A program made the position numbers and the translations under genes. Below the pieces are notes generated by a model. It did not search any database. It was not told where the DNA came from and saw only the letters and a program-made list of their open reading frames with translations. Of a stretch of 32,000 nucleotides of DNA, positions 1,924 through 12,388 are shown in pieces; positions within the stretch are counted from its first letter, which is position 1, and every line of letters starts with the position of its first letter. This stretch comes from Candidatus Baldrarchaeota archaeon (GTDB taxonomy: Archaea > Asgardarchaeota > Baldrarchaeia > Baldrarchaeales > DXJG01): contig DXJG01000009.1 of NCBI GenBank assembly GCA_019056805.1, forward strand, positions 299,473 to 331,472, given 5' to 3'.

Positions 1924-3483
1924 ATGGTGAGTTGTTTGAAGGTTATTTTAGTTGGGGTGGATGGCGCTACATCTTGGATTATCGAAGAGTTACTTTTCGG
2001 GCTTAGCGGTTTTAATAGGTTAGCAAAAGATGGAATTCTTTGTAATTTGAAAACTACTTTACCGCCTTTGAGTAGTTGTGCTTGGGCTAGTATTTATACA
2101 GGTGTTAAGCCTAGTAGGCATGGTATGTTTGATTTTGTTGGTGTTGAGCACGATTATAACGTTAGAGGCTTAGGCTTTGTTAACGGTTTAAAATTTCCTG
2201 TTTTTTGGAGTTTGCTTGGAAAATTCGGGTTTAAAAGTGTTGTTGTGAATCCTCCAATGGTCTATCCAGCCTTTAAAGTTAATGGTGTTTTGGTTTCAGG
2301 TTGGCCTTCTCCTAGAGTATCTGTTTATCCTGATAGGTTTAGAAGAGTTTTGAAAGAAGTTGGATATAAGATTGATGTTGATGGTTTAGAAGGTCGTTTT
2401 AGGAAAGATCCAGATGCTACTGTTGACGATTTAGTTGAAACTGCTAAAACTCGTGGTGAGGCATGTTTAAGACTTGCTGAGGAGGTTGGAGACTGGAACT
2501 TGTTGTTTCCTGTTTTTACCGTTTGTGATCGGATTCAGCATTTTGCCTTGGGGCGTAAAGAATGGAAAAAATGGGTTTTAAAGGCTTATAGAGTTGTTGA
2601 TGAATTTATTCAGCAAGCTTTGAATTTGTTAAAGGAAGAAGAAGGTCTGTTATTCGTTGTTTCTGATCATGGTTTTCAACCAATTAGAAAATCTTTTCTT
2701 ATAAATTCTTGGCTTGTAAAAACGGGTTTCGCTAAATTGAGATATAGTCGTTTTCGTTCTTTAATTAGAGAATACATTGTTAATAATATTAATTTGAGAA
2801 CTATTTATTGGGGAGCTTCCAACCGAAGACTCGCTACCCTAGTTGGAAAGATTGGTAGTTTGTTTTTGGGCGGGGCTCCTTTACATGGAAGGTTTAGTGT
2901 AAATGATTTCATTTTAAGGAAGACTTTAGCTTTTGCCTCTGGTACTATTAGTCCTACTACTTTCATTTGGATTAATGATGAAAGGTTTAAACAATTTGCT
3001 GTTGAAAAATCGAAGAAATCTGATATAAGAGAAAAAATTGTGGACGGTCTTTTTAAAGTTAAGGATCAGAGTGGTATAGCGATAGTTAGAGATGTTGTGG
3101 AGGTTGAAAATCTTTATACTGGTAATGGTAAAGGAGATATGGTTTCTCCTGATTTAATGGTTGTTGCTAACGACGGATATACTATTGATCCTTGGTATGT
3201 TAGTTCAGGCTATGTGGTTAATCCTAGTGTTTATAGACATGGAGACCATAGTTTTGAAGGAGTTTTTGCCGCCTTAGGGCCATCTCTTAACGATATGAAA
3301 AACTTTAACACTTGCGGCGTCGTTGATATAGCTCCCACGATTTTAAGTCTCTTTAAGATCCCTATTCCCTCTTGGATGAGCGGAGAACCCCTAACTAGAA
3401 TTAACTCGCATTCTGAAGCAAATTTAAAGAATAGATTAAAGCTTAAAGCAAAAATTGTCGAGAAAAAACTTTATGGCTGCTAA
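1924..3483 (+). CDS. Alkaline phosphatase superfamily protein (NPP/type I phosphodiesterase-like), paralog 1, Ser at nucleophile position
   Basis: GVDGA metal Asp, TLPPLSSCAW...TG..P..HG nucleophile region, DRIQH, VVSDHGF, HGDH, DIAPTIL. No signal peptide. Confidence 0.88.
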   Translation: MVSCLKVILVGVDGATSWIIEELLFGLSGFNRLAKDGILCNLKTTLPPLSSCAWASIYTGVKPSRHGMFDFVGVEHDYNVRGLGFVNGLKFPVFWSLLGKFGFKSVVVNPPMVYPAFKVNGVLVSGWPSPRVSVYPDRFRRVLKEVGYKIDVDGLEGRFRKDPDATVDDLVETAKTRGEACLRLAEEVGDWNLLFPVFTVCDRIQHFALGRKEWKKWVLKAYRVVDEFIQQALNLLKEEEGLLFVVSDHGFQPIRKSFLINSWLVKTGFAKLRYSRFRSLIREYIVNNINLRTIYWGASNRRLATLVGKIGSLFLGGAPLHGRFSVNDFILRKTLAFASGTISPTTFIWINDERFKQFAVEKSKKSDIREKIVDGLFKVKDQSGIAIVRDVVEVENLYTGNGKGDMVSPDLMVVANDGYTIDPWYVSSGYVVNPSVYRHGDHSFEGVFAALGPSLNDMKNFNTCGVVDIAPTILSLFKIPIPSWMSGEPLTRINSHSEANLKNRLKLKAKIVEKKLYGC

Positions 3484-3493
3484 CCGAGAAACT

Positions 3494-3507
3494 TATAATC
3501 CATTATA
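3494..3507. promoter_or_regulatory. Inverted repeat TATAAT-cc-ATTATA upstream of RHH gene 1 (possible operator/TATA region)
   Basis: 6-bp inverted repeat with 2-bp spacer in the 68-bp intergenic gap; AT-rich, so could be chance. Confidence 0.3.
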
Positions 3508-3551
3508 CCTCACAATATTTCATGTAAATTTAGGAATTCAGGTTTGGGAGG

Positions 3552-3779
3552 TTGATTGTTTTGTCAGAAGATAAGGTCGCTGTTTATATCTCTAAAGATC
3601 TATATGAGGAAATTAAGAAACGTGTTGACTCAAGCGGTGGAGAATTCAAAAGCGTCGAAGAATACGTGGAATTTGTTTTGAGCGAGATCGTAAAGGAGGA
3701 AGAAGAGGAAGAATTTGAATATAGCCCCGAAGAAGAAGAAAAAATAAAGGAAAGGTTACGAGGACTAGGATACCTTTAA
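3552..3779 (+). CDS. CopG/ribbon-helix-helix protein with acidic RLRGLGYL tail (RHH-1)
   Basis: VAVYISKDLYEEIKKRV...FKSVEEYVEFVLSEIV is an RHH pattern; tail EEEEKIKERLRGLGYL. GGGAGG RBS at 3546-3551 suggests the true start is TTG 3561. Confidence 0.8.
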   Translation: MIVLSEDKVAVYISKDLYEEIKKRVDSSGGEFKSVEEYVEFVLSEIVKEEEEEEFEYSPEEEEKIKERLRGLGYL

Positions 3780-3803
3780 CATAATAATCAAAATGAACGT
3801 ACA

Positions 3804-4325
3804 CTACACATATTTTAATTCTGTTAATTTTTCCAAAATTTTTTGAACACATTGCTCTGGTGTATCATTTTCCGTATCAACTATTACCTCTGGATTTTCA
3901 GGTTCCTCATATGGATCCGATATTCCTGTGAAGTTTTTTATTTCTCCTTGTATGGCTTTTTTGTAAAGGCCTTTTGGATCCCTTTGGATACATGTTTCCA
4001 CAGAACATTTCACGTAAACTTCAATGAACTTTTCTATTATGCTTCTAGCATAGTCTCTCATTGCCCTATATGGTGAAACTAAACTTACAATAACTGCTAC
4101 TCCGTGTTTAGCTAGCATTTTAGCTAAATATGCTACTCTTCTTCCATGTTTTAATCTGTCTTCCTTTGAAAAACCTAAGTCTTGACTTAAACCTTTTCTT
4201 AGCTCATCTCCATCAAGTACTTCAGTATCCCAACCAAGTTCTCTTAATTTTTCCTCAAGTTTTCTTGCAATAGTTGTTTTACCCGATGCTGGCAATCCCG
4301 TTAACCAAACAACAAATCCCCTCAT
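3804..4325 (-). CDS. cysC: Adenylyl-sulfate (APS) kinase
   Basis: WLTGLPASGKTT P-loop, LDGD, LGFSKEDR, SLVSPY, RDPKGLYKKA, FTGISDPYEEP. ATG 4325 directly follows the stop of the upstream gene (ORF track starts at GTG 4334). Confidence 0.96.
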   Translation of the reverse strand: MRGFVVWLTGLPASGKTTIARKLEEKLRELGWDTEVLDGDELRKGLSQDLGFSKEDRLKHGRRVAYLAKMLAKHGVAVIVSLVSPYRAMRDYARSIIEKFIEVYVKCSVETCIQRDPKGLYKKAIQGEIKNFTGISDPYEEPENPEVIVDTENDTPEQCVQKILEKLTELKYV

Positions 4326-4326
4326 T

Positions 4327-5712
4327 CTATACACCCTCTACTACCTTTCCCTCCATATCTCCTGGTGGTTCTATCTCTAAAAGTCTTAGAATTGTAGGAG
4401 CTACGTCAAGTATATCTATATCTATTTTCTTCCCACCAAAATTTTGGTTTGGATCATAAATTATGTGTATTCCGTATTGACTATGTACAGCATCATCTGG
4501 TCCAGTGTCATTCTCCGGTAAATAAACTGTATTGTGTCCTATTGTTCCTGCCGACCTCCAATATAAGTCGTCAAAGAAAACCATGAGATCCGGCGGTTCA
4601 CCATTTATTTCTGGGTAATATTCCTCAGGTTTTATTACCTTTGTTTCTAGTTTTTCACCACTAGGTCCACGTATATTCTCTATTTTTTCTGCTAGTTCAT
4701 CTCTTACATCTTCGTACTCCTCAGGTTTTATTATTCCTTGTGGCTCTCTACCTTCTACATTTAGGAAGATTCTTGCGTAATAGCCTCCCCATCCCCATGC
4801 TATGGTTTTTTTCCAATCTACTTCTGCTTTCTCCAGCCGTATTTTTTGTTCAGGGTATTTCTTTAGGGTTAGGTAGCCTTCTTTTATTAGCCACTCATTT
4901 ATACATAGTGCCCCTTTCATTCTCTTTGCTCCATGATCGGAAACAACAACAATCTTCGTGTTTTTTGGAATTATTTTTAGAAGCTCTTCAATTTGCTGAT
5001 CTAGGCATTTATAGTAGTTCAAGATTGCATCGCTATATTTGCTATGTGGTTCGTATAAATGGTGTTCTGGGTCAAAGAATTTCCAAAAGGCATGTTGAAC
5101 ACGATCCAACCCTATTTCTACAAACATGAAAAAGTCCCATTTCTTATTTTTAAGCAAGTACTTTATTAATTTGAAGCGTTTTTCTGTCATCTCGTATAGT
5201 CCTTTTAATAATTTGTCTCTTTCCTCTGTTCTAAACGGTATGTCAAAAATATAGTTTCCTACTACTTTTTCGATTTCTTCTTTAAGTTCTGGAGGATATG
5301 TGTATTGTTTCGCATTCGTAGGGGTAATGAAGCAGGATATAAGGTAACCGTTGAGAGGCTTCGGTGGATAGGTTGGTGGTACTCCAATAACTATGGATCT
5401 TTTACCCTTTTCGCTAAGTATGTTCCATACGGTTTTTTCTTTGATTTTTTGGTAGTTAGCTATCCATATATCCGTGTATGAATAGTTTTTGCGATGTCTA
5501 AACCCATATATCCCTAGTTTTCCAGGGTTTTTGCTTGTTGACATTACCATCCAAGCTGGAATCGTAATCGGTGGAACACAACTTTTCATTTTTCCATATA
5601 TTCCATTCTCTACAAGGCTTTTGATGTTTGGTAGTTCATCTAGAAACGCATCAAAAAGTAGTTCAGGTGGCGCTGCGTCTAAACCAATAACTAAAACTTT
5701 TGGTTCACTCAT
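4327..5712 (-). CDS. Alkaline phosphatase superfamily protein (NPP-like), paralog 2, Thr at nucleophile position
   Basis: IGLDAA, SCVPPITIPAW, DRVQH, VVSDHG, DAVHSQYG, DVAPTIL. No signal peptide. Lies between sat and cysC in one operon. Confidence 0.9.
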   Translation of the reverse strand: MSEPKVLVIGLDAAPPELLFDAFLDELPNIKSLVENGIYGKMKSCVPPITIPAWMVMSTSKNPGKLGIYGFRHRKNYSYTDIWIANYQKIKEKTVWNILSEKGKRSIVIGVPPTYPPKPLNGYLISCFITPTNAKQYTYPPELKEEIEKVVGNYIFDIPFRTEERDKLLKGLYEMTEKRFKLIKYLLKNKKWDFFMFVEIGLDRVQHAFWKFFDPEHHLYEPHSKYSDAILNYYKCLDQQIEELLKIIPKNTKIVVVSDHGAKRMKGALCINEWLIKEGYLTLKKYPEQKIRLEKAEVDWKKTIAWGWGGYYARIFLNVEGREPQGIIKPEEYEDVRDELAEKIENIRGPSGEKLETKVIKPEEYYPEINGEPPDLMVFFDDLYWRSAGTIGHNTVYLPENDTGPDDAVHSQYGIHIIYDPNQNFGGKKIDIDILDVAPTILRLLEIEPPGDMEGKVVEGV

Positions 5713-5727
5713 TACATTCGCCTTCTG

Positions 5728-6888
5728 TTACTCAACAAATGGATTTTTCCATTTTAAAATTATTTCTGATATTTCTGGCCTCATTATTTCTTTTGGTGGT
5801 TTTTTGCCTTGTTGTAAGAGCTTTCTTATCACCGTCCCGCTAAATCTTACACGGTATTCTTCTGGGTGTGGACATGTTTTTTCATTCGCCATACCGCCAC
5901 ATTTTTTACATATGAAGAATTCTTTGAAAAATATGGGAATTATTCCTAAGTCTGGGAATTCATCAAATATTTCTTGGGCAGCATATGGTGGGTAAAAGTT
6001 TCCCACTCCTGCATGATCTCTTCCTACTATGAAATGAGTGCATCCAAAGTTTTTCCTTACAATAGCATGAAATATTGCTTCTCTAGGCCCTGCATACCTC
6101 ATTTCTGTTCGTAGTATTGCTAAAACTGCTCTATCTTTAAGATAATAATGTTTTATTAGTTCTTCGTAAGCTGCTAGAATTACCTCATCTTTGAAATCTC
6201 CCTTCTTTTTTCTCCCTATTACCGGATTTATGAATAGTCCATCCGTGAATGTTAGGGCAGTTTTTTGTACATATTCGTGTCCTGTATGTGGAGCATTTCT
6301 TGTTTGGAACCCTACTATTGTTCTCCATCCTCTTTCCTTGAAAAGTAGTCTCGTTTCCACAGGCCATAATGTATATTTATAGTATGGATTTGCTGAATGG
6401 TCTATTAGGTCTATTTTTCCTCCTAGAAGTTTTTCTTTCATTCCATATGTTTTTGCTACTCCTGGATGCGCTGGGTCTTTTATCCCAAACACTTTTTCTA
6501 CATGTTTTTCTTTATCGTAATCATATACTTCCTCCACATGTAGTATGGCTATGAGCTTTTCTTCTTCAAGGCAAATTATTGTTATGTTATCGCCCTCTTT
6601 TACTGTTTTTATCTCTTCTTCGTCAACATCTATCACTATGGGTATTGTCCAAGGAAGATCGTTAGATAGTCTCATATTTTCCAATACATTCAAGTAATCT
6701 TCTTGTATCATTGGGCCCTCTAGTGGACTGAAGACGCCATGAGCAATGTTTTCTATATCTTTGATGTATTCGCTTGGTAATTTTATTTTTGGTAGTTCTA
6801 GTGCTTCTTTCAATCTTCTATCTCTTTCCTTGCCTTTTAACACTCTATTTATGAGTCTCCCTCCGTGTGGCGGTGGCATTTTCGTCAT
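5728..6888 (-). CDS. sat: Sulfate adenylyltransferase (ATP sulfurylase)
   Basis: PHGGRL, FSPLEG, FQTRNAPHTGHEY, MRYAGPREA.FHAIVRKNFGCTHFIVGRDHAGVG, and CKKC...CPH Zn site of the thermophilic type. Confidence 0.97.
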   Translation of the reverse strand: MTKMPPPHGGRLINRVLKGKERDRRLKEALELPKIKLPSEYIKDIENIAHGVFSPLEGPMIQEDYLNVLENMRLSNDLPWTIPIVIDVDEEEIKTVKEGDNITIICLEEEKLIAILHVEEVYDYDKEKHVEKVFGIKDPAHPGVAKTYGMKEKLLGGKIDLIDHSANPYYKYTLWPVETRLLFKERGWRTIVGFQTRNAPHTGHEYVQKTALTFTDGLFINPVIGRKKKGDFKDEVILAAYEELIKHYYLKDRAVLAILRTEMRYAGPREAIFHAIVRKNFGCTHFIVGRDHAGVGNFYPPYAAQEIFDEFPDLGIIPIFFKEFFICKKCGGMANEKTCPHPEEYRVRFSGTVIRKLLQQGKKPPKEIMRPEISEIILKWKNPFVE

Positions 6889-6895
6889 ACTCCTT

Positions 6896-7138
6896 TTAAT
6901 CTATGTAACCAAGAGCTCTTAGTCTTTCTTTTATTTCTTCCTCCTCTTCCTCCGAAAATACTTCTTTCTCTTCTTCCAGTTTTGCAAGGTATTCTCTTAT
7001 TATGTGGGTTACCAAGCTTGAAACCGAAGAAAACTCTGTTTCCTTGACTTTTTCTTCAAGTTTTTTATATAGAGATGTTGGTATTAGAATTGAGGTGAAA
7101 TTTTTGCTTTTTGTTTTTTCTTCGGTCAATTTCATCAT
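6896..7138 (-). CDS. CopG/ribbon-helix-helix protein with acidic RLRALGYID tail (RHH-2)
   Basis: FTSILIPTSLYKKLEEKV...FSSVSSLVTHIIREYL is an RHH pattern; tail EEEEEEIKERLRALGYID; 7 bp upstream of sat. Confidence 0.82.
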   Translation of the reverse strand: MMKLTEEKTKSKNFTSILIPTSLYKKLEEKVKETEFSSVSSLVTHIIREYLAKLEEEKEVFSEEEEEEIKERLRALGYID

Positions 7139-7145
7139 CCTTTAT

Positions 7146-7220
7146 TTTTGTAGTGGATTTACAAAACGACCATATAAACCTCACGGTTATATACATGAAA
7201 ATTCACGTATATATACGTGA
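7146..7220. promoter_or_regulatory. Three tandem inverted repeats, including a perfect 18-bp palindrome TCACGTATATATACGTGA (7203-7220)
   Basis: TTTTGTA/TACAAAA (7146-7152/7160-7166), ATATAAACC/GGTTATAT (7172-7180/7185-7192, one-base mismatch in length) and the perfect palindrome, all within the 86-bp gap upstream of RHH-2-sat. Minus-strand TTTATATG TATA-like box near 7172-7179. Confidence 0.6.
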
Positions 7221-7224
7221 TGGA

Positions 7225-8598
7225 TTAAGAAGTAAAAATCTGTTGAATAGGTTTCCCATCCATATAATTTGGTATTGGAACTTGTAATATCTTTAATATT
7301 GTTGGCGTCAAGTCGTAAAGATTAGCTTCAACTTCTAAGCCTTCAGGAATACCGTGTCCTAGTATAGCTAATATTCCTGGTACGTCTCTTGGATCATGTG
7401 TTCCATCATGTCCTCCATTCCACTTTTCAGACTTTACAATACATTTTTGAGTTTTATATTCCTTTGATTTGCCTCTACTTGCCTGCCAACCTGAATTAAA
7501 AAGTATTATTAGATCTGGGGCCTCCTCTACATAAGGCCCCCAATATACGTCTCGTGTAGCCACATACTTCACTACTTTTTGCCCATCTACCTCTATCTTC
7601 TCTAAATTTTTCTTAATTTTTTGCAGAATCTCTCCGTATTCTTCAGGTTTTATTTTCCCTTGCGGTTCTCTCCCCTTCAAATTTAACCATACATCTCCAT
7701 ACTCATACGCAACCGCCACACTACCTTCAACATCTATTTCTCCCTTAACATCTCCCTTTAGGAAACCTTGTTTATGTAGTAAGCAATTAACTAATACCTC
7801 ACTATGCACCGGACAGAAACCGTGATCAGAAAGCAAAATAAACAAAGTTTCCTCAAGATCTATATTCTCCAGAAACCTAGAAATAATTACATCCATTTTT
7901 TGATAATATCTCTTAACTTTCTCTGTAAACTCATTCTTCTCATATTCTGGATGTCTTTCATCCACATATTTCCAGAAAAAGTGCTGTATACGATCTGTAC
8001 CCATAAACACCGTTATAAAAAAATCCCATTCTTCTTCCTCAAGTAAAAATAAGCTTATATCCATTTGTATATCAGTTATTTCATCTACTCTTTCAAAAAA
8101 CTTGTCCGGTTCCTCCTTAACCCTTTCGAGTAGCTTTATTTCCACATCACCTTTAAACTGTTTAATTCCGAATTTGCCTTGTAATTTTTCTTTTATTTTG
8201 GTTGGATACGGTATCCCTTCATTTTTTGCTAGAAATCCTGGTATTATGAATCCGTTTAACTCTTCTGTTCTTGCCATGGGGACATTTATTACACCCACTT
8301 TTTTGTCATGTTCACTTAATATTTTCCATAGAGTTTTTGTTTTTATTTTATCAGGAGTATTCACTTTTCTTTTGTATGTCCCCTTTTCTCTTGTCATAAA
8401 GCTGAATATTCCATGCTTCCCCGGGTTTACTCCCGTCATAAAAGTTGTCCATGCCACCGGAGTTTGTGCTGGTAACGGCGGTATCGTTCTACCCATTATC
8501 CCCTGCTTTTTTATTTTTCTTAGAGCTGGCAGCGTCTCTATCCATTTTTCTACCAATATAGGTGACAAACCATCTGAGCCAATTACTAAGACCCTCAT
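7225..8598 (-). CDS. Alkaline phosphatase superfamily protein (NPP-like), paralog 3, Thr at nucleophile position
   Basis: IGSDGL, PAQTPVAW..FMTG.NPGKHG, DRIQH, LSDHGF, GGHDG, DLTPTIL. GGGAG RBS; no signal peptide. Confidence 0.9.
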   Translation of the reverse strand: MRVLVIGSDGLSPILVEKWIETLPALRKIKKQGIMGRTIPPLPAQTPVAWTTFMTGVNPGKHGIFSFMTREKGTYKRKVNTPDKIKTKTLWKILSEHDKKVGVINVPMARTEELNGFIIPGFLAKNEGIPYPTKIKEKLQGKFGIKQFKGDVEIKLLERVKEEPDKFFERVDEITDIQMDISLFLLEEEEWDFFITVFMGTDRIQHFFWKYVDERHPEYEKNEFTEKVKRYYQKMDVIISRFLENIDLEETLFILLSDHGFCPVHSEVLVNCLLHKQGFLKGDVKGEIDVEGSVAVAYEYGDVWLNLKGREPQGKIKPEEYGEILQKIKKNLEKIEVDGQKVVKYVATRDVYWGPYVEEAPDLIILFNSGWQASRGKSKEYKTQKCIVKSEKWNGGHDGTHDPRDVPGILAILGHGIPEGLEVEANLYDLTPTILKILQVPIPNYMDGKPIQQIFTS

Positions 8599-8658
8599 TT
8601 TCCAACTCCCTTAAATGATCAAGTACAACCCACGCTTAGGGCGAAACAATTAAATATA

Positions 8659-9666
8659 TCAAACTGCAGCTTTCTGTATCTTTTTAAGTCCTCTCATGGC
8701 TACTATGTATGCTGATGTTGTATGAACGTCTAGTCCCAAATCTCCCGCTATTATCTTAGCACTTATTGATGAGTATGCTGGATTAACCTTTATTAACTCT
8801 CCTTCAACCTTGGGGACTAAAACCTCCATCTGTTGTGTAAACTCCCTTAAAGCCATCTTTGAAATCTTCCTCTTAGCAGTCTTATTACCTTTAGGTTTTG
8901 GTTTAGACAATCTTTCAATAACATAGTATTTTACGCCGTGCTCTCTAGCATACTTCACAAGCTTAGTAAGGGATTCTCTCCTTAAAGAAACCGCCTTCTC
9001 CCTTGGAAATCCATGAGATGTAATCTCCATAAAATGCTCGTTTCTAACGTCTCTCATAATTCCCTGTCTATCAATTATCACCATATTTATCCTATCTGGG
9101 TTAAAGTCAAAGCCGGCAATATGTTCAGTAATCTTCGTCTTTGATTCTTTCCTCATATATTTAACGTAGAGTTCTAGTGGAATATTTATGTAGAGGATTA
9201 ATTTACTGTCTTTTGTACATATACCCGCTCCATAAGATATGTTGGAATTCGTCAATTCTTGAATTATCGGTATGTGTTTCCTTCCAAACTTTACTTTAGC
9301 TTTTAACCATCTATGTTTCCCAGTAGCTGAAGGTATTTTAATTAGCACGATTTCAGTCGACATTAACCTTATGTTTCTATTACCTTTCTCAGCTTTAACA
9401 CCAACCGAATATAATTGTGGTTTCTTAAGTTTGAGATACGGTTGCTCACTATACAGTTTTGCCCTTATGTATGCTGAACGCGAGTACCATTTATTGTTAA
9501 GTATTCTTGACGTTAACAGCTTGATTATTTTGTTTTCTTTTAATCCTTTCTTCAACAGTGAATGAGCATAGTCAACAGCATCTTTAAAGTTCCTCATAAC
9601 GTATAGTAAAAAGGCTTTATCCTCTGCTGAGCTGAGAACGAGCTTTCCCTTAATTGTAGGTCTCAC
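8659..9666 (-). CDS. tnpB: IS200/IS605 accessory TnpB-related RuvC protein lacking the C-terminal Zn ribbon
   Basis: GNRNIRL motif; RuvC-I GFDFNPD, RuvC-II VIERL, VNPAYSS, RuvC-III LDVH; no CxxC pairs. GTG 9666 overlaps the AbrB stop (GTGA); ORF track uses GTG 9678. Confidence 0.8.
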   Translation of the reverse strand: MRPTIKGKLVLSSAEDKAFLLYVMRNFKDAVDYAHSLLKKGLKENKIIKLLTSRILNNKWYSRSAYIRAKLYSEQPYLKLKKPQLYSVGVKAEKGNRNIRLMSTEIVLIKIPSATGKHRWLKAKVKFGRKHIPIIQELTNSNISYGAGICTKDSKLILYINIPLELYVKYMRKESKTKITEHIAGFDFNPDRINMVIIDRQGIMRDVRNEHFMEITSHGFPREKAVSLRRESLTKLVKYAREHGVKYYVIERLSKPKPKGNKTAKRKISKMALREFTQQMEVLVPKVEGELIKVNPAYSSISAKIIAGDLGLDVHTTSAYIVAMRGLKKIQKAAV

Positions 9667-9821
9667 TTCTTTTCCCACTTCTCGACCACCATCCTACCAT
9701 TCTTCTCATCATAGTAAACTACGAGCTTATCCTTTGGTTTAAGATCCCACTTCTCGGCAATCTCCTTAGGTATGGTCATCTTCATTTTGGGTAAAACCCT
9801 ATATACCCCTATTAACTCCAT
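9663..9821 (-). CDS. AbrB/MazE/SpoVT-family DNA-binding protein, 52 aa (missed by ORF track)
   Basis: MELIGVYRVLPKMKMTIPKEIAEKWDLKPKDKLVVYYDEKNGRMVVEKWEKK matches the xTIPKEIxxxxxLKPxDxL AbrB pattern. GGTGAT RBS; stop overlaps the tnpB start. Confidence 0.82.
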   Translation of the reverse strand: MELIGVYRVLPKMKMTIPKEIAEKWDLKPKDKLVVYYDEKNGRMVVEKWEKK

Positions 9822-9837
9822 GGTATCACCAGAAATA

Positions 9838-9871
9838 TTTATAAACCACTGAGTATATAAAAATTTTTAAG
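9838..9871. promoter_or_regulatory. Divergent archaeal promoter region (abrB-tnpB leftward, structured RNA rightward)
   Basis: TTTATAAA, TATATAAA and TTTTTAAG TATA-like boxes in a very AT-rich gap (6 G/C in 9831-9870). Confidence 0.45.
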
Positions 9872-10030
9872 CATCGACCCCTATGAAGAAGGCGAGGGGG
9901 ATGAGCACAGATGAACCCAGATTCGATGATGGGAGTGCTGAATTAGCGTGTAGGTGCTCCTTCAGTCGGGTCTGGGCGACTCACACCCGTGATGAGACAC
10001 TCTGTGTCAAAAGATATTAAAAGATACGGG
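9871..10030 (+). ncRNA. Candidate structured non-coding RNA, family unassigned
   Basis: 77/140 G+C in 9871-10010 versus AT-rich flanks. Hairpins 9872-9903, 9916-9976 (long, with G-U wobbles that pair only on the + strand) and 9996-10008. Repeated (A/G)TGA motifs, ACA after the first two hairpins, T-tract at 10050-10054. Confidence 0.55.
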
Positions 10031-10088
10031 GTGGTTGAACGGCATTAGCTTTTTATTGATTGTTGAGAATTTATTGTGGGGAATTGTT

Positions 10089-10274
10089 ATGAGTAAGGTA
10101 AAATATGTAAATATTTCTATCCCTAAGCCTTTATATGAACGTTTAGAAAAAGCTTTAAAGGACTCTGGCTATAGGAGTCCGACTGAATATATCATTTTCC
10201 TTATCAGGAAACATCTCGCTGACCTTGAGTCTGATGATCTCGATCGTAGATTAAAGGCCCTCGGCTACAAATAA
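10089..10274 (+). CDS. CopG/ribbon-helix-helix protein with RLKALGYK tail (RHH-3)
   Basis: MSKVKYVNISIPKPLYERLEKAL...YRSPTEYIIFLIRKHL is an RHH pattern; tail DDLDRRLKALGYK. ATG 10089 preferred over TTG 10035. Confidence 0.82.
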   Translation: MSKVKYVNISIPKPLYERLEKALKDSGYRSPTEYIIFLIRKHLADLESDDLDRRLKALGYK

Positions 10275-11059: not shown

Positions 11060-11175
11060 ATGTCAAAATTCGGAAGTTTGAGGAGAATAGTTATACCAAA
11101 ATCGATCTGCAAAAGACTCTTGTTATCAAGGAAAGTTATAAGGTAGAGGTTATATTTGAGAAGGTAGATGAATAA
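11060..11175 (+). pseudogene. Frameshifted AbrB/SpoVT-like ORF coupled to tnpB
   Basis: Frame from ATG 11060: MSKFGSLRRIVIPKSICKRL. The -1 frame from about 11122 gives VIKESYKVEVIFEKVDE*, whose TAA overlaps the tnpB ATG (TAATG). The composite resembles the AbrB consensus GRIVIPKEIRxxLGIKEGDKVEV. Confidence 0.5.
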
Positions 11176-12377
11176 TGCTTCTTAGCTACCGATTTCGCAT
11201 ATATCCTTCAAAAACGATCCAAGCTAAGCTGAATGAGCAACTTGAGATATGTAGATGGCTCTATAACCGACTATTAGAAGAAGTTAACAAGGCAAGAAAA
11301 GAAGGAAGGAAAATCAATAGGCAAGATACACAAGCCCTTATTGTAAAGCTCAAAGAGGAGAAGCCAGAACTAAACAAAGTTTACTCTAAGGTTTTGCAAA
11401 TGGTGAACTATCAGCTATGGTCAAACATTAAGACTTTAGCTGAATTGAAGCGAAAAGGAAAGAAAACTGGAACGCTAAGGTATAAAACTGGAAACTCATT
11501 CAAAACTCTGAATTTTAATCAATCAGGCTTTAAAATCGATTTTAAACGAAGGAAACTCGTCTTGTCCAAGGTTGGTGAGATTCCAATCAAGTTACACAGA
11601 AAAATTGAAGGAAAAATCAAAGGAGTTATAATCAAGAGGACAAAATCTGAAAAGTGGTTTGCACTCGTTCAACTCGAAGTTGTAGATGAAACGATACCAA
11701 AAACTGGAAGGGTCATTGGTATCGATATGGGAGTTCATCACTTCGCTACCGATTCAGATGGCAATCGTTTCGAAAACCCAAAGTTTCTAGATAAAACAAT
11801 AGAGAAGATAAGGAAAATCCAAAAAGTGCTATCAAGAAAACAGAAAGGTTCAAAGAATAGAGAAAAGGCTAGAAAGAGACTGGCTAAGCTTTACGAAAAA
11901 TTAGAAAATCAGAGAAACGATTTCCTTCACAAACTTTCCCGCTACTACATCAACAACTACGATGTTGTCTGCATTGAGGATTTAGATATTAAGAGTTTGG
12001 TTGAAAATAACAGATCCCACACTTTGAACCGTCACATTTTGGATGCTTCTTGGTCAAAGTTCATTCAACTACTCTTCTATAAGGCTGAAAGAGCTAATAG
12101 AAGAGTAGTTAAGGTAAATCCAAAAAATACATCAAGAATATGTGCTAGATGTGGTAAGATTATCAAGATTGAATTAAAGGACAGATTATTTGTTTGTCCT
12201 TATTGCAGTTGGGAGGCGGACAGAGATTATAATGCCTCCCTGAACATTCTGAATGCGGGGCTGGGACGGCCCTTAGCGCCTGTGGAGAGAGAACCTCTAC
12301 TCCGTATCGTTTCTTATTGGGAAGTAATTACGGGGCAAGTTCTCTCAATGAAGCAGGAAGCCCCTTGCGTCAGCTAG
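11175..12377 (+). CDS. tnpB: RNA-guided endonuclease TnpB (IS200/IS605, IS1341-like, no TnpA)
   Basis: N-terminal YRFRIYP HTH_OrfB; RuvC IGIDMG, CIEDL, DRDYNASLNI; CARC/CPYC Zn ribbon. All catalytic residues present. Confidence 0.95.
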   Translation: MLLSYRFRIYPSKTIQAKLNEQLEICRWLYNRLLEEVNKARKEGRKINRQDTQALIVKLKEEKPELNKVYSKVLQMVNYQLWSNIKTLAELKRKGKKTGTLRYKTGNSFKTLNFNQSGFKIDFKRRKLVLSKVGEIPIKLHRKIEGKIKGVIIKRTKSEKWFALVQLEVVDETIPKTGRVIGIDMGVHHFATDSDGNRFENPKFLDKTIEKIRKIQKVLSRKQKGSKNREKARKRLAKLYEKLENQRNDFLHKLSRYYINNYDVVCIEDLDIKSLVENNRSHTLNRHILDASWSKFIQLLFYKAERANRRVVKVNPKNTSRICARCGKIIKIELKDRLFVCPYCSWEADRDYNASLNILNAGLGRPLAPVEREPLLRIVSYWEVITGQVLSMKQEAPCVS

Positions 12378-12388
12378 GGGTAGTTCAC
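11175..12388 (+). mobile_element. Non-autonomous IS1341-like element; left end not located
   Basis: tnpB only, no Y1 or serine transposase nearby; right end defined at ...TTCAC 12388. Confidence 0.7.

Follow-up and report, generated by a model that had tools for sequence, protein, structure and literature searches.

The zinc-finger-less TnpB proteins of the RIIIr-4 RHH/MazE-TnpB type were described by Altae-Tran et al. 2023 (PMC10691335). That paper lists them among the non-mobile clades, as probable toxin-antitoxin systems whose guide might reside in the 3′ UTR. No report of RIIIr-4 TnpB activity was found in the literature searched. Right-end RNAs are known from IS607-family elements. CboIStron has matching core dinucleotides and an omegaRNA scaffold that ends in the core dinucleotide, and IS607 excision needs ~60 bp of the right end (bioRxiv 10.1101/2023.11.20.567912). 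RAGATH-18, the reRNA of ISFba1, has a predicted kink-turn and E-loop and no ORF overlap (PMC11061315). In Pyrococcus abyssi, the orfB-related RNAs sRkB, sRkC and sRk48/52 possess K-turns or a K-loop and bind L7Ae, and some of them are found as solo copies that carry a promoter of their own (Phok et al. 2011, PMC3124441).

The analysed window, that is, the whole stretch of 32,000 nucleotides of the Baldrarchaeota genome, harbours on the minus strand a tnpB gene of the RIIIr-4 type (8659-9678), encoding 339 aa without C4 zinc finger, with W64 and the RuvC residues D191, E255 and D317-x-H319. D191, E255, D317 and H319 are invariant in 66/66 homologues. TnpB models match the protein weakly, and its AlphaFold model resembles Cas12f and TnpB structures. 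The tnpB start is overlapped by an abrB/MazE-like gene of 52 aa (9663-9821, minus strand; TIGR01439, E 1.6e-6). Among homologues this small gene belongs to the AbrB, RHH or small Zn-ribbon types; at L049 and L056, a Zn-ribbon gene is present upstream of tnpB in place of AbrB or RHH. Similar to the RIIIr-4 proteins of the published account (PMC10691335), the protein is archaeal, lacks the C4 zinc finger, carries the RuvC-III Asp to His rearrangement and is encoded downstream of an AbrB/MazE or RHH gene, features by which, and not by a tree with the sequences of that paper, it was assigned to this type. Unlike in that account, the element described here is mobile with IS607 ends, and its conserved RNA lies 5′ of the cassette on the opposite strand. 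There is little space or structure 3′ of tnpB. No relatives of this TnpB were detected among viral contigs and phage records, and plasmids gave distant ones only.

An earlier note on this DNA had proposed a multi-hairpin RNA at 9871-10030, divergent from abrB-tnpB. This region has a G+C content of 52%, not 55% as first reported, in a genome of ~35%. On the plus strand its fold reached a z of -2.59, with 0/200 shuffles as good, whereas the minus strand (z -1.25) was not better than shuffles, in agreement with the strand proposed. A covariance model matches the window with 120 bits, and together with covariation it delimits a conserved RNA at 9872-10042 (plus strand, 5′ end approximate). The RNA initially delimited is thus real, but its stated limit was too short, as it actually terminates in GAACGG at 10042. 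By blastn and covariance model search the RNA is single-copy in its own genome. Homologous loci were drawn from genomes and metagenomes, and 87 were scanned with the covariance model. The RNA lies ~200 nt upstream of tnpB on the opposite strand, and was detected divergent upstream of the abrB/RHH-tnpB cassette in 75/87 loci, a count in which 46 of the detected sequences went into model building; the remaining 12/87 loci have <230 nt of upstream sequence each. The divergent placement therefore holds in 75/75 loci with enough upstream sequence.

Covariation among homologues, a check suggested beforehand, supports the structure. RNAalifold on a plain MAFFT alignment of 47 sequences found double changes at 22/25 pairs. 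In the 28-pair structure 96.6% of the cells are paired, compared with 34-52% in slid controls, and compensatory double changes occur at 23/28 pairs. On these comparative grounds, the structured RNA is real and highly conserved. It occupies the right end of a small transposon of archaea.

The RNA folds into four stems. P1 (9876-9904, plus strand) is a short covarying stem flanked on one side by a K-turn (GA 9876-9877 with bulge, and GA 9900-9904) and on the other by a K-loop (9882-9895); it contains the first hairpin proposed previously (CCCC 9878-9881 / GGGG 9896-9899). Both its K-turn and its K-loop-like motif are kept in 44/47 sequences, with double changes at 3/3 counted pairs. P2 (9914-9980, plus strand) is a long hairpin with small loops, a variable tip and a conserved GA/GNA internal loop, which may be loop-E-like; the second proposed hairpin is found here as 9916-9926 / 9966-9976 and 9932-9938 / 9954-9960. 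The third, which had been read as GACAC/GTGTC, is really an 11-bp stem, the terminal hairpin P4 (9998-10008 / 10023-10033), closed by P3 (CCGT 9987-9990 / ACGG 10039-10042). Together P3 and P4 (9987-10042, plus strand) form the transposon right end, terminating in the GG core. P3 is 100% paired among homologues and switches between CCGT/ACGG, GGGT/ACCC and GAGT/ACTC, and its K-turn (9991-9995 with 10037-10038) is kept in 45/47.

Upstream of the RNA, a BRE-like CAGAAA and the TATA box TTTATAAA (9830-9845, plus strand) constitute a predicted RNA promoter. The TATA noted before recurs: most of 68 homologues have TT[AT]TA[AT] at a distance of 30-42 nt before the first conserved GA, with a mode of -37. 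A second TATA-like box (9854-9863, minus strand), judged by its sequence and its position relative to the abrB start, is probably the abrB-tnpB promoter. The downstream T-tract, also noted before, exists, but it belongs to host DNA outside the element and is also present at the empty site.

The RNA, the divergent promoter region, the inverted abrB-tnpB cassette and a left end compose a whole non-autonomous IS607-type element of 1401 bp (8642-10042, plus strand), as indicated by an empty site, end motifs and ends common to autonomous IS607 elements. The left end (8642-8690, plus strand) overlaps the tnpB stop and is similar to the left ends of the autonomous IS607 elements L182 and L187 (78-81% by blastn across 32-37 nt, with E 5e-4 against a small database); in homologues, too, a second conserved end was found just past the tnpB stop. 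The RNA is therefore the right end and not the left end of the element, which had been one of the options first considered. Homologue conservation ends sharply after GAACGG, GAACCC or GAACTC. A candidate IS605-like end, GGTGGTTGA, was dropped, as homologues show GAACGG. Beyond it, where empty-site homology resumes, host flank 10043-10062 (plus strand) is the predicted guide, its length being assumed. On the left, the flank TAGGG (8637-8641, plus strand), with the GG core at 8640-8641, is the predicted target and TAM, based on dinucleotide matching and, for the TAM role, on IS607 CboTnpB. An inverted copy of the short A/T-rich motif AAAAGATAC was found at 8676-8687 in the left end and at 10018-10028 in the P4 loop and stem; the two copies are possibly transposase-binding repeats.

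The left-flank dinucleotide equals the terminal dinucleotide of the RNA (GG, CC or TC) in 31/39 insertions, compared with 14.5 on shuffling, a count that overstates independence, as end classes are clustered on the TnpB tree (~4 switches) and the left-end anchor was picked after viewing the data. The switches of end class correspond to a few independent events, each altering both ends. An empty orthologous site is present in the congener G001, where the two genes that flank the element lie next to each other and homology picks up again at 10042/10043. The left junction, 8641/8642, is set by motif only, and the empty site, from a different species, is without the GG core. Two further rejoined flanks show colinearity with homologues that lack the element, and rejoining of an interrupted glycosylase gene is precise and in frame, with one core copy. 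These junctions agree with IS607, where a matching core dinucleotide marks either junction, the empty site retains a single copy of it and no larger duplication arises, the left junction in the window being less certain. A systematic ORF-continuity test of rejoined flanks gave 3/41, not significant against 1-2/41 at shifted junctions; most insertions are intergenic. At L012/L101, the element sits inside a glycosylase-like gene that bears a second lesion downstream. From its motif, we take this gene to be 3-methyladenine glycosylase-like.

In several genomes, the RNA copies exceed the tnpB genes (18 and 23 versus 5 and 2, respectively). Many of these copies are MITEs of 213-329 bp, consisting of left end and RNA, at different sites. 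Such MITEs include L135, L137, L139 and L140 in G004, L142, L156 and L167 in G064, and L153, L162 and L168 in G063; some are found in genomes without a matching tnpB by the query used, and each could express a different guide. The MITEs L145, L148 and L164 break the core rule, as their left-flank and terminal dinucleotides differ (CC/TC, GG/CC). Both element ends recur in autonomous tnpA-tnpB IS607 elements of the same genomes or of related ones, whose transposase is of the MerR-serine type; in L177 both ends match with E ~1e-12. The same terminal hairpin occurs in the autonomous elements, there at the 3′ end of the element's own, canonical tnpB. The element in the window was classed as a non-autonomous derivative because the serine TnpA is missing from it. 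Neither a serine IS607 nor a Y1 transposase was found in the element or in the 91% complete genome, and the window copy may therefore be stranded.

Sequence comparison shows the RNA to be conserved, structured and fixed in position; it also establishes the ends of the element, their recurrence in autonomous IS607 elements, and mobility, through empty sites and MITEs. Our preferred reading, with a probability of roughly 0.8, is that the adjacent RIIIr-4 RHH/MazE-TnpB uses the RNA as its omegaRNA scaffold, expressed from a divergent promoter of its own. A structured RNA at a transposon right end, followed by variable host sequence and located in the same element as tnpB, is what characterises omegaRNAs, and the RNA described here shows these features. 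Their usual location at or downstream of the tnpB 3′ end on the same strand, which is typical but not strictly defining, does not apply here, as the RNA is upstream on the opposite strand in 75/75 loci. The RNA cannot be cut from tnpB mRNA and needs its own promoter, because the abrB-tnpB cassette points away from the right end. The earlier note had included an omegaRNA of the Zn-less TnpB among its options, as an orphan or trans-encoded RNA; the assignment is supported, but the RNA is neither, as it shares one element with the inverted tnpB.

In the mechanism we propose, transcription would pass GAACGG into host DNA from 10043, which would supply the guide, and L7Ae would bind the K-turns. 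The TnpB-RNA complex would cut DNA with a TAM ending in GG and followed by the guide sequence. The target would be the empty site left after excision by a serine IS607 transposase acting in trans, so that retention of the element would be favoured. No second TAM-plus-guide site of >10 nt was found in the genome. The AbrB or RHH protein would act as a repressor of the promoter region rather than as an antitoxin, like Arc in IS605 elements.

TnpB residue 64 tracks the end class in 65/65 elements, being W in 36/36 GG-ended and H in 29/29 CC- or TC-ended elements. In the AlphaFold model it is located at the start of the third helix, and it may help TAM reading; the sequence alignment to solved TnpB structures fell short of this residue. 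L081 (124-316 and tnpB) is nested in the CC clade, keeps several CC-clade residues and has a small gene as in that clade, but carries W64, a GG right end and an AG left flank, an apparent end swap with matching residue change. Considered across homologues, this tracking suggests that the TnpB reads the flank as TAM, L081 providing one natural experiment, on a long branch.

The structure might also matter only as a transposon right end, at the DNA level or in relation to the transposase, or as a selfish L7Ae-binding transcript, with no guiding of this TnpB. This would fit P3 and P4 being common to autonomous IS607 ends and the persistence of the RNA in many tnpB-less MITEs. We nonetheless regard it as unlikely. 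An RNA function is favoured because of the G-U-tolerant covariation, the K-turns and the conserved promoter; moreover, P1 and P2 are conserved although IS607 excision needs only ~60 bp of right end, and TnpB residue 64 follows the end class.

Quite unlikely as well is that the cassette is a toxin-antitoxin module and the RNA an RNA antitoxin or regulator instead of a flank-programmed guide. The AbrB/MazE or RHH gene does overlap tnpB, and a toxin-antitoxin hypothesis has already been published (PMC10691335). However, the unit is mobile with transposon ends, broken tnpB copies exist, and genes of the AbrB, RHH and Zn-ribbon types replace one another as the small gene; RHH genes of IS605 elements act as promoter repressors (bioRxiv 10.64898/2026.09.24.754181).

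An independent C/D or H/ACA modification guide RNA, another option of the earlier note, is very improbable and by now largely refuted, although the window copy offers a perfect box C, K-turn and K-loop motifs and two ACA triplets. The triplets at 9907 and 9983 are present as described, but are kept in only 2/47 and 7/47 sequences, and the P2 loops are small, which does not fit a pseudouridylation pocket. The sequence GTGATGA is found at 9989-9995, but it is the bulged strand of the P3 K-turn; this box C is internal, its CUGA partner occurs in 0/47, and the sequence before the terminal GA is paired. The defining boxes and single-stranded guides of either class are thus not conserved. Furthermore, the RNA is patchy, multicopy and always linked to the element, and the Rfam scan suggested beforehand (HgcC, H/ACA, IS605-associated RNAs) gave no match in the window up to E 5, neither to a guide family nor to another. 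A motif search found no rRNA genes in the assembly. It is equally hard to credit that the RNA acts in trans as a guide for the second, canonical TnpB at 11175-12377. Its proximity and a superficial CCCC/GGGG likeness speak for this; however, that TnpB has its own right end (12360-12388, ending GTTCAC), the covariance model gives a single match in the genome, and in other genomes the RNA tracks the Zn-less TnpB. The likeness that had been seen between the first hairpin and this right end does not hold, as the hairpin sequence is unconserved (column 24: A16 C12 G10 T9). Finally, a 45-codon frame is open at 9883-10020, as reported, but as a functional unit it is refuted at the sequence level, since homologous frames range from 2 to 95 codons (median ~10 in 72 homologues) with lengths in all three phases, and it has no Pfam match.

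Compared with the IS607-family omegaRNAs of CboIStron (bioRxiv 10.1101/2023.11.20.567912) and RAGATH-18/ISFba1 (PMC11061315), the omegaRNA proposed here has in common the right-end location, a scaffold ending in the core dinucleotide and a G-rich target. In those elements the RNA follows tnpB and shares its strand, whereas here tnpB points the other way, the RNA has a predicted promoter of its own, and cores are also CC and TC. Rfam searches gave no match between RAGATH-18 and the RNA. The P. abyssi sRk RNAs are similarly archaeal and orfB-related with K-turns or a K-loop, a likeness in motifs, but they match the sense 3′ end of orfB. By analogy, these RNAs (PMC3124441) and RAGATH-18 (PMC11061315) may serve as precedents for K-turns in TnpB-linked RNAs.

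The 73-nt model of Sso133 (Rfam RF02814, Sulfolobus sRNA133) aligns to P2 of homologues with 26-30 bits; its gathering threshold of 44 bits was reached by no homologue, and neither the window copy nor its genome gave a match. All six weak matches, from two genomes, are inside covariance-model hits. Among 151 sampled genomes from the order to which G063 belongs, true Sso133 loci either precede a divergently oriented Zn-less D-R-H TnpB by ~230 bp or belong to short elements, and they follow the same P3 end rule. Sso133 matches in Sulfolobales are thus placed like the RNA of the window, next to a TnpB of this type. Model R1 recognises 18/21 Sso133 loci, many of them with a divergent Zn-less tnpB. 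Because of these matches and the shared context, part of the RNA family is already catalogued as a Sulfolobus small RNA, which gives indirect support for expression. The Rfam model differs in covering P2 only and names no function; the Sso133 source paper was not found in the literature searches.

The protein pair, the IS607 omegaRNAs and the Sso133 fragment are already known. No description of the inverted layout or of the connection between RNA and TnpB was found in the literature searched, a search that lay outside subscription papers and the PNAS supplement. The locus supplies an RNA, a guide boundary and a TAM prediction for a TnpB branch published as probable toxin-antitoxin with the guide expected at the wrong end, and makes the activity of a very small thermophilic His-rearranged zinc-finger-less TnpB directly testable. 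It also points to a possible function of Sso133, an uncharacterised RNA of culturable Sulfolobales, suggests the host protein L7Ae as part of an OMEGA complex, and offers a one-residue hypothesis for TAM specificity. Tentatively, and with more doubt than confidence, we suggest an OMEGA subtype that is widespread in archaea. Its zinc-finger-less, His-rearranged TnpB of 339 aa would be programmed by an L7Ae-dependent guide RNA that is transcribed separately, from the opposite strand; W64 or H64 would switch the TAM, GG or CC/TC, along with the IS607 core, and RNA-only MITEs would provide many further guides in trans.

The element is located between a cluster of alkaline-phosphatase-superfamily genes and an RHH gene at 10089-10274. 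The cluster (window 1924-8598) comprises three alkaline-phosphatase-superfamily genes and an ATP sulfurylase gene, and is syntenic in the congener. The second TnpB of the window is a canonical zinc-finger protein of 400 aa; together with its right end, a hairpin that finishes in GTTCAC, it spans 11175-12388. Right ends like this one were detected at two other places in the genome (C17 ~276,900 and C18 ~39,400), and no Y1 transposase was found in the assembly. ARAGORN predicted a tRNA-Sec-like gene with TCA anticodon on contig C9 of the same genome (16939-17035).
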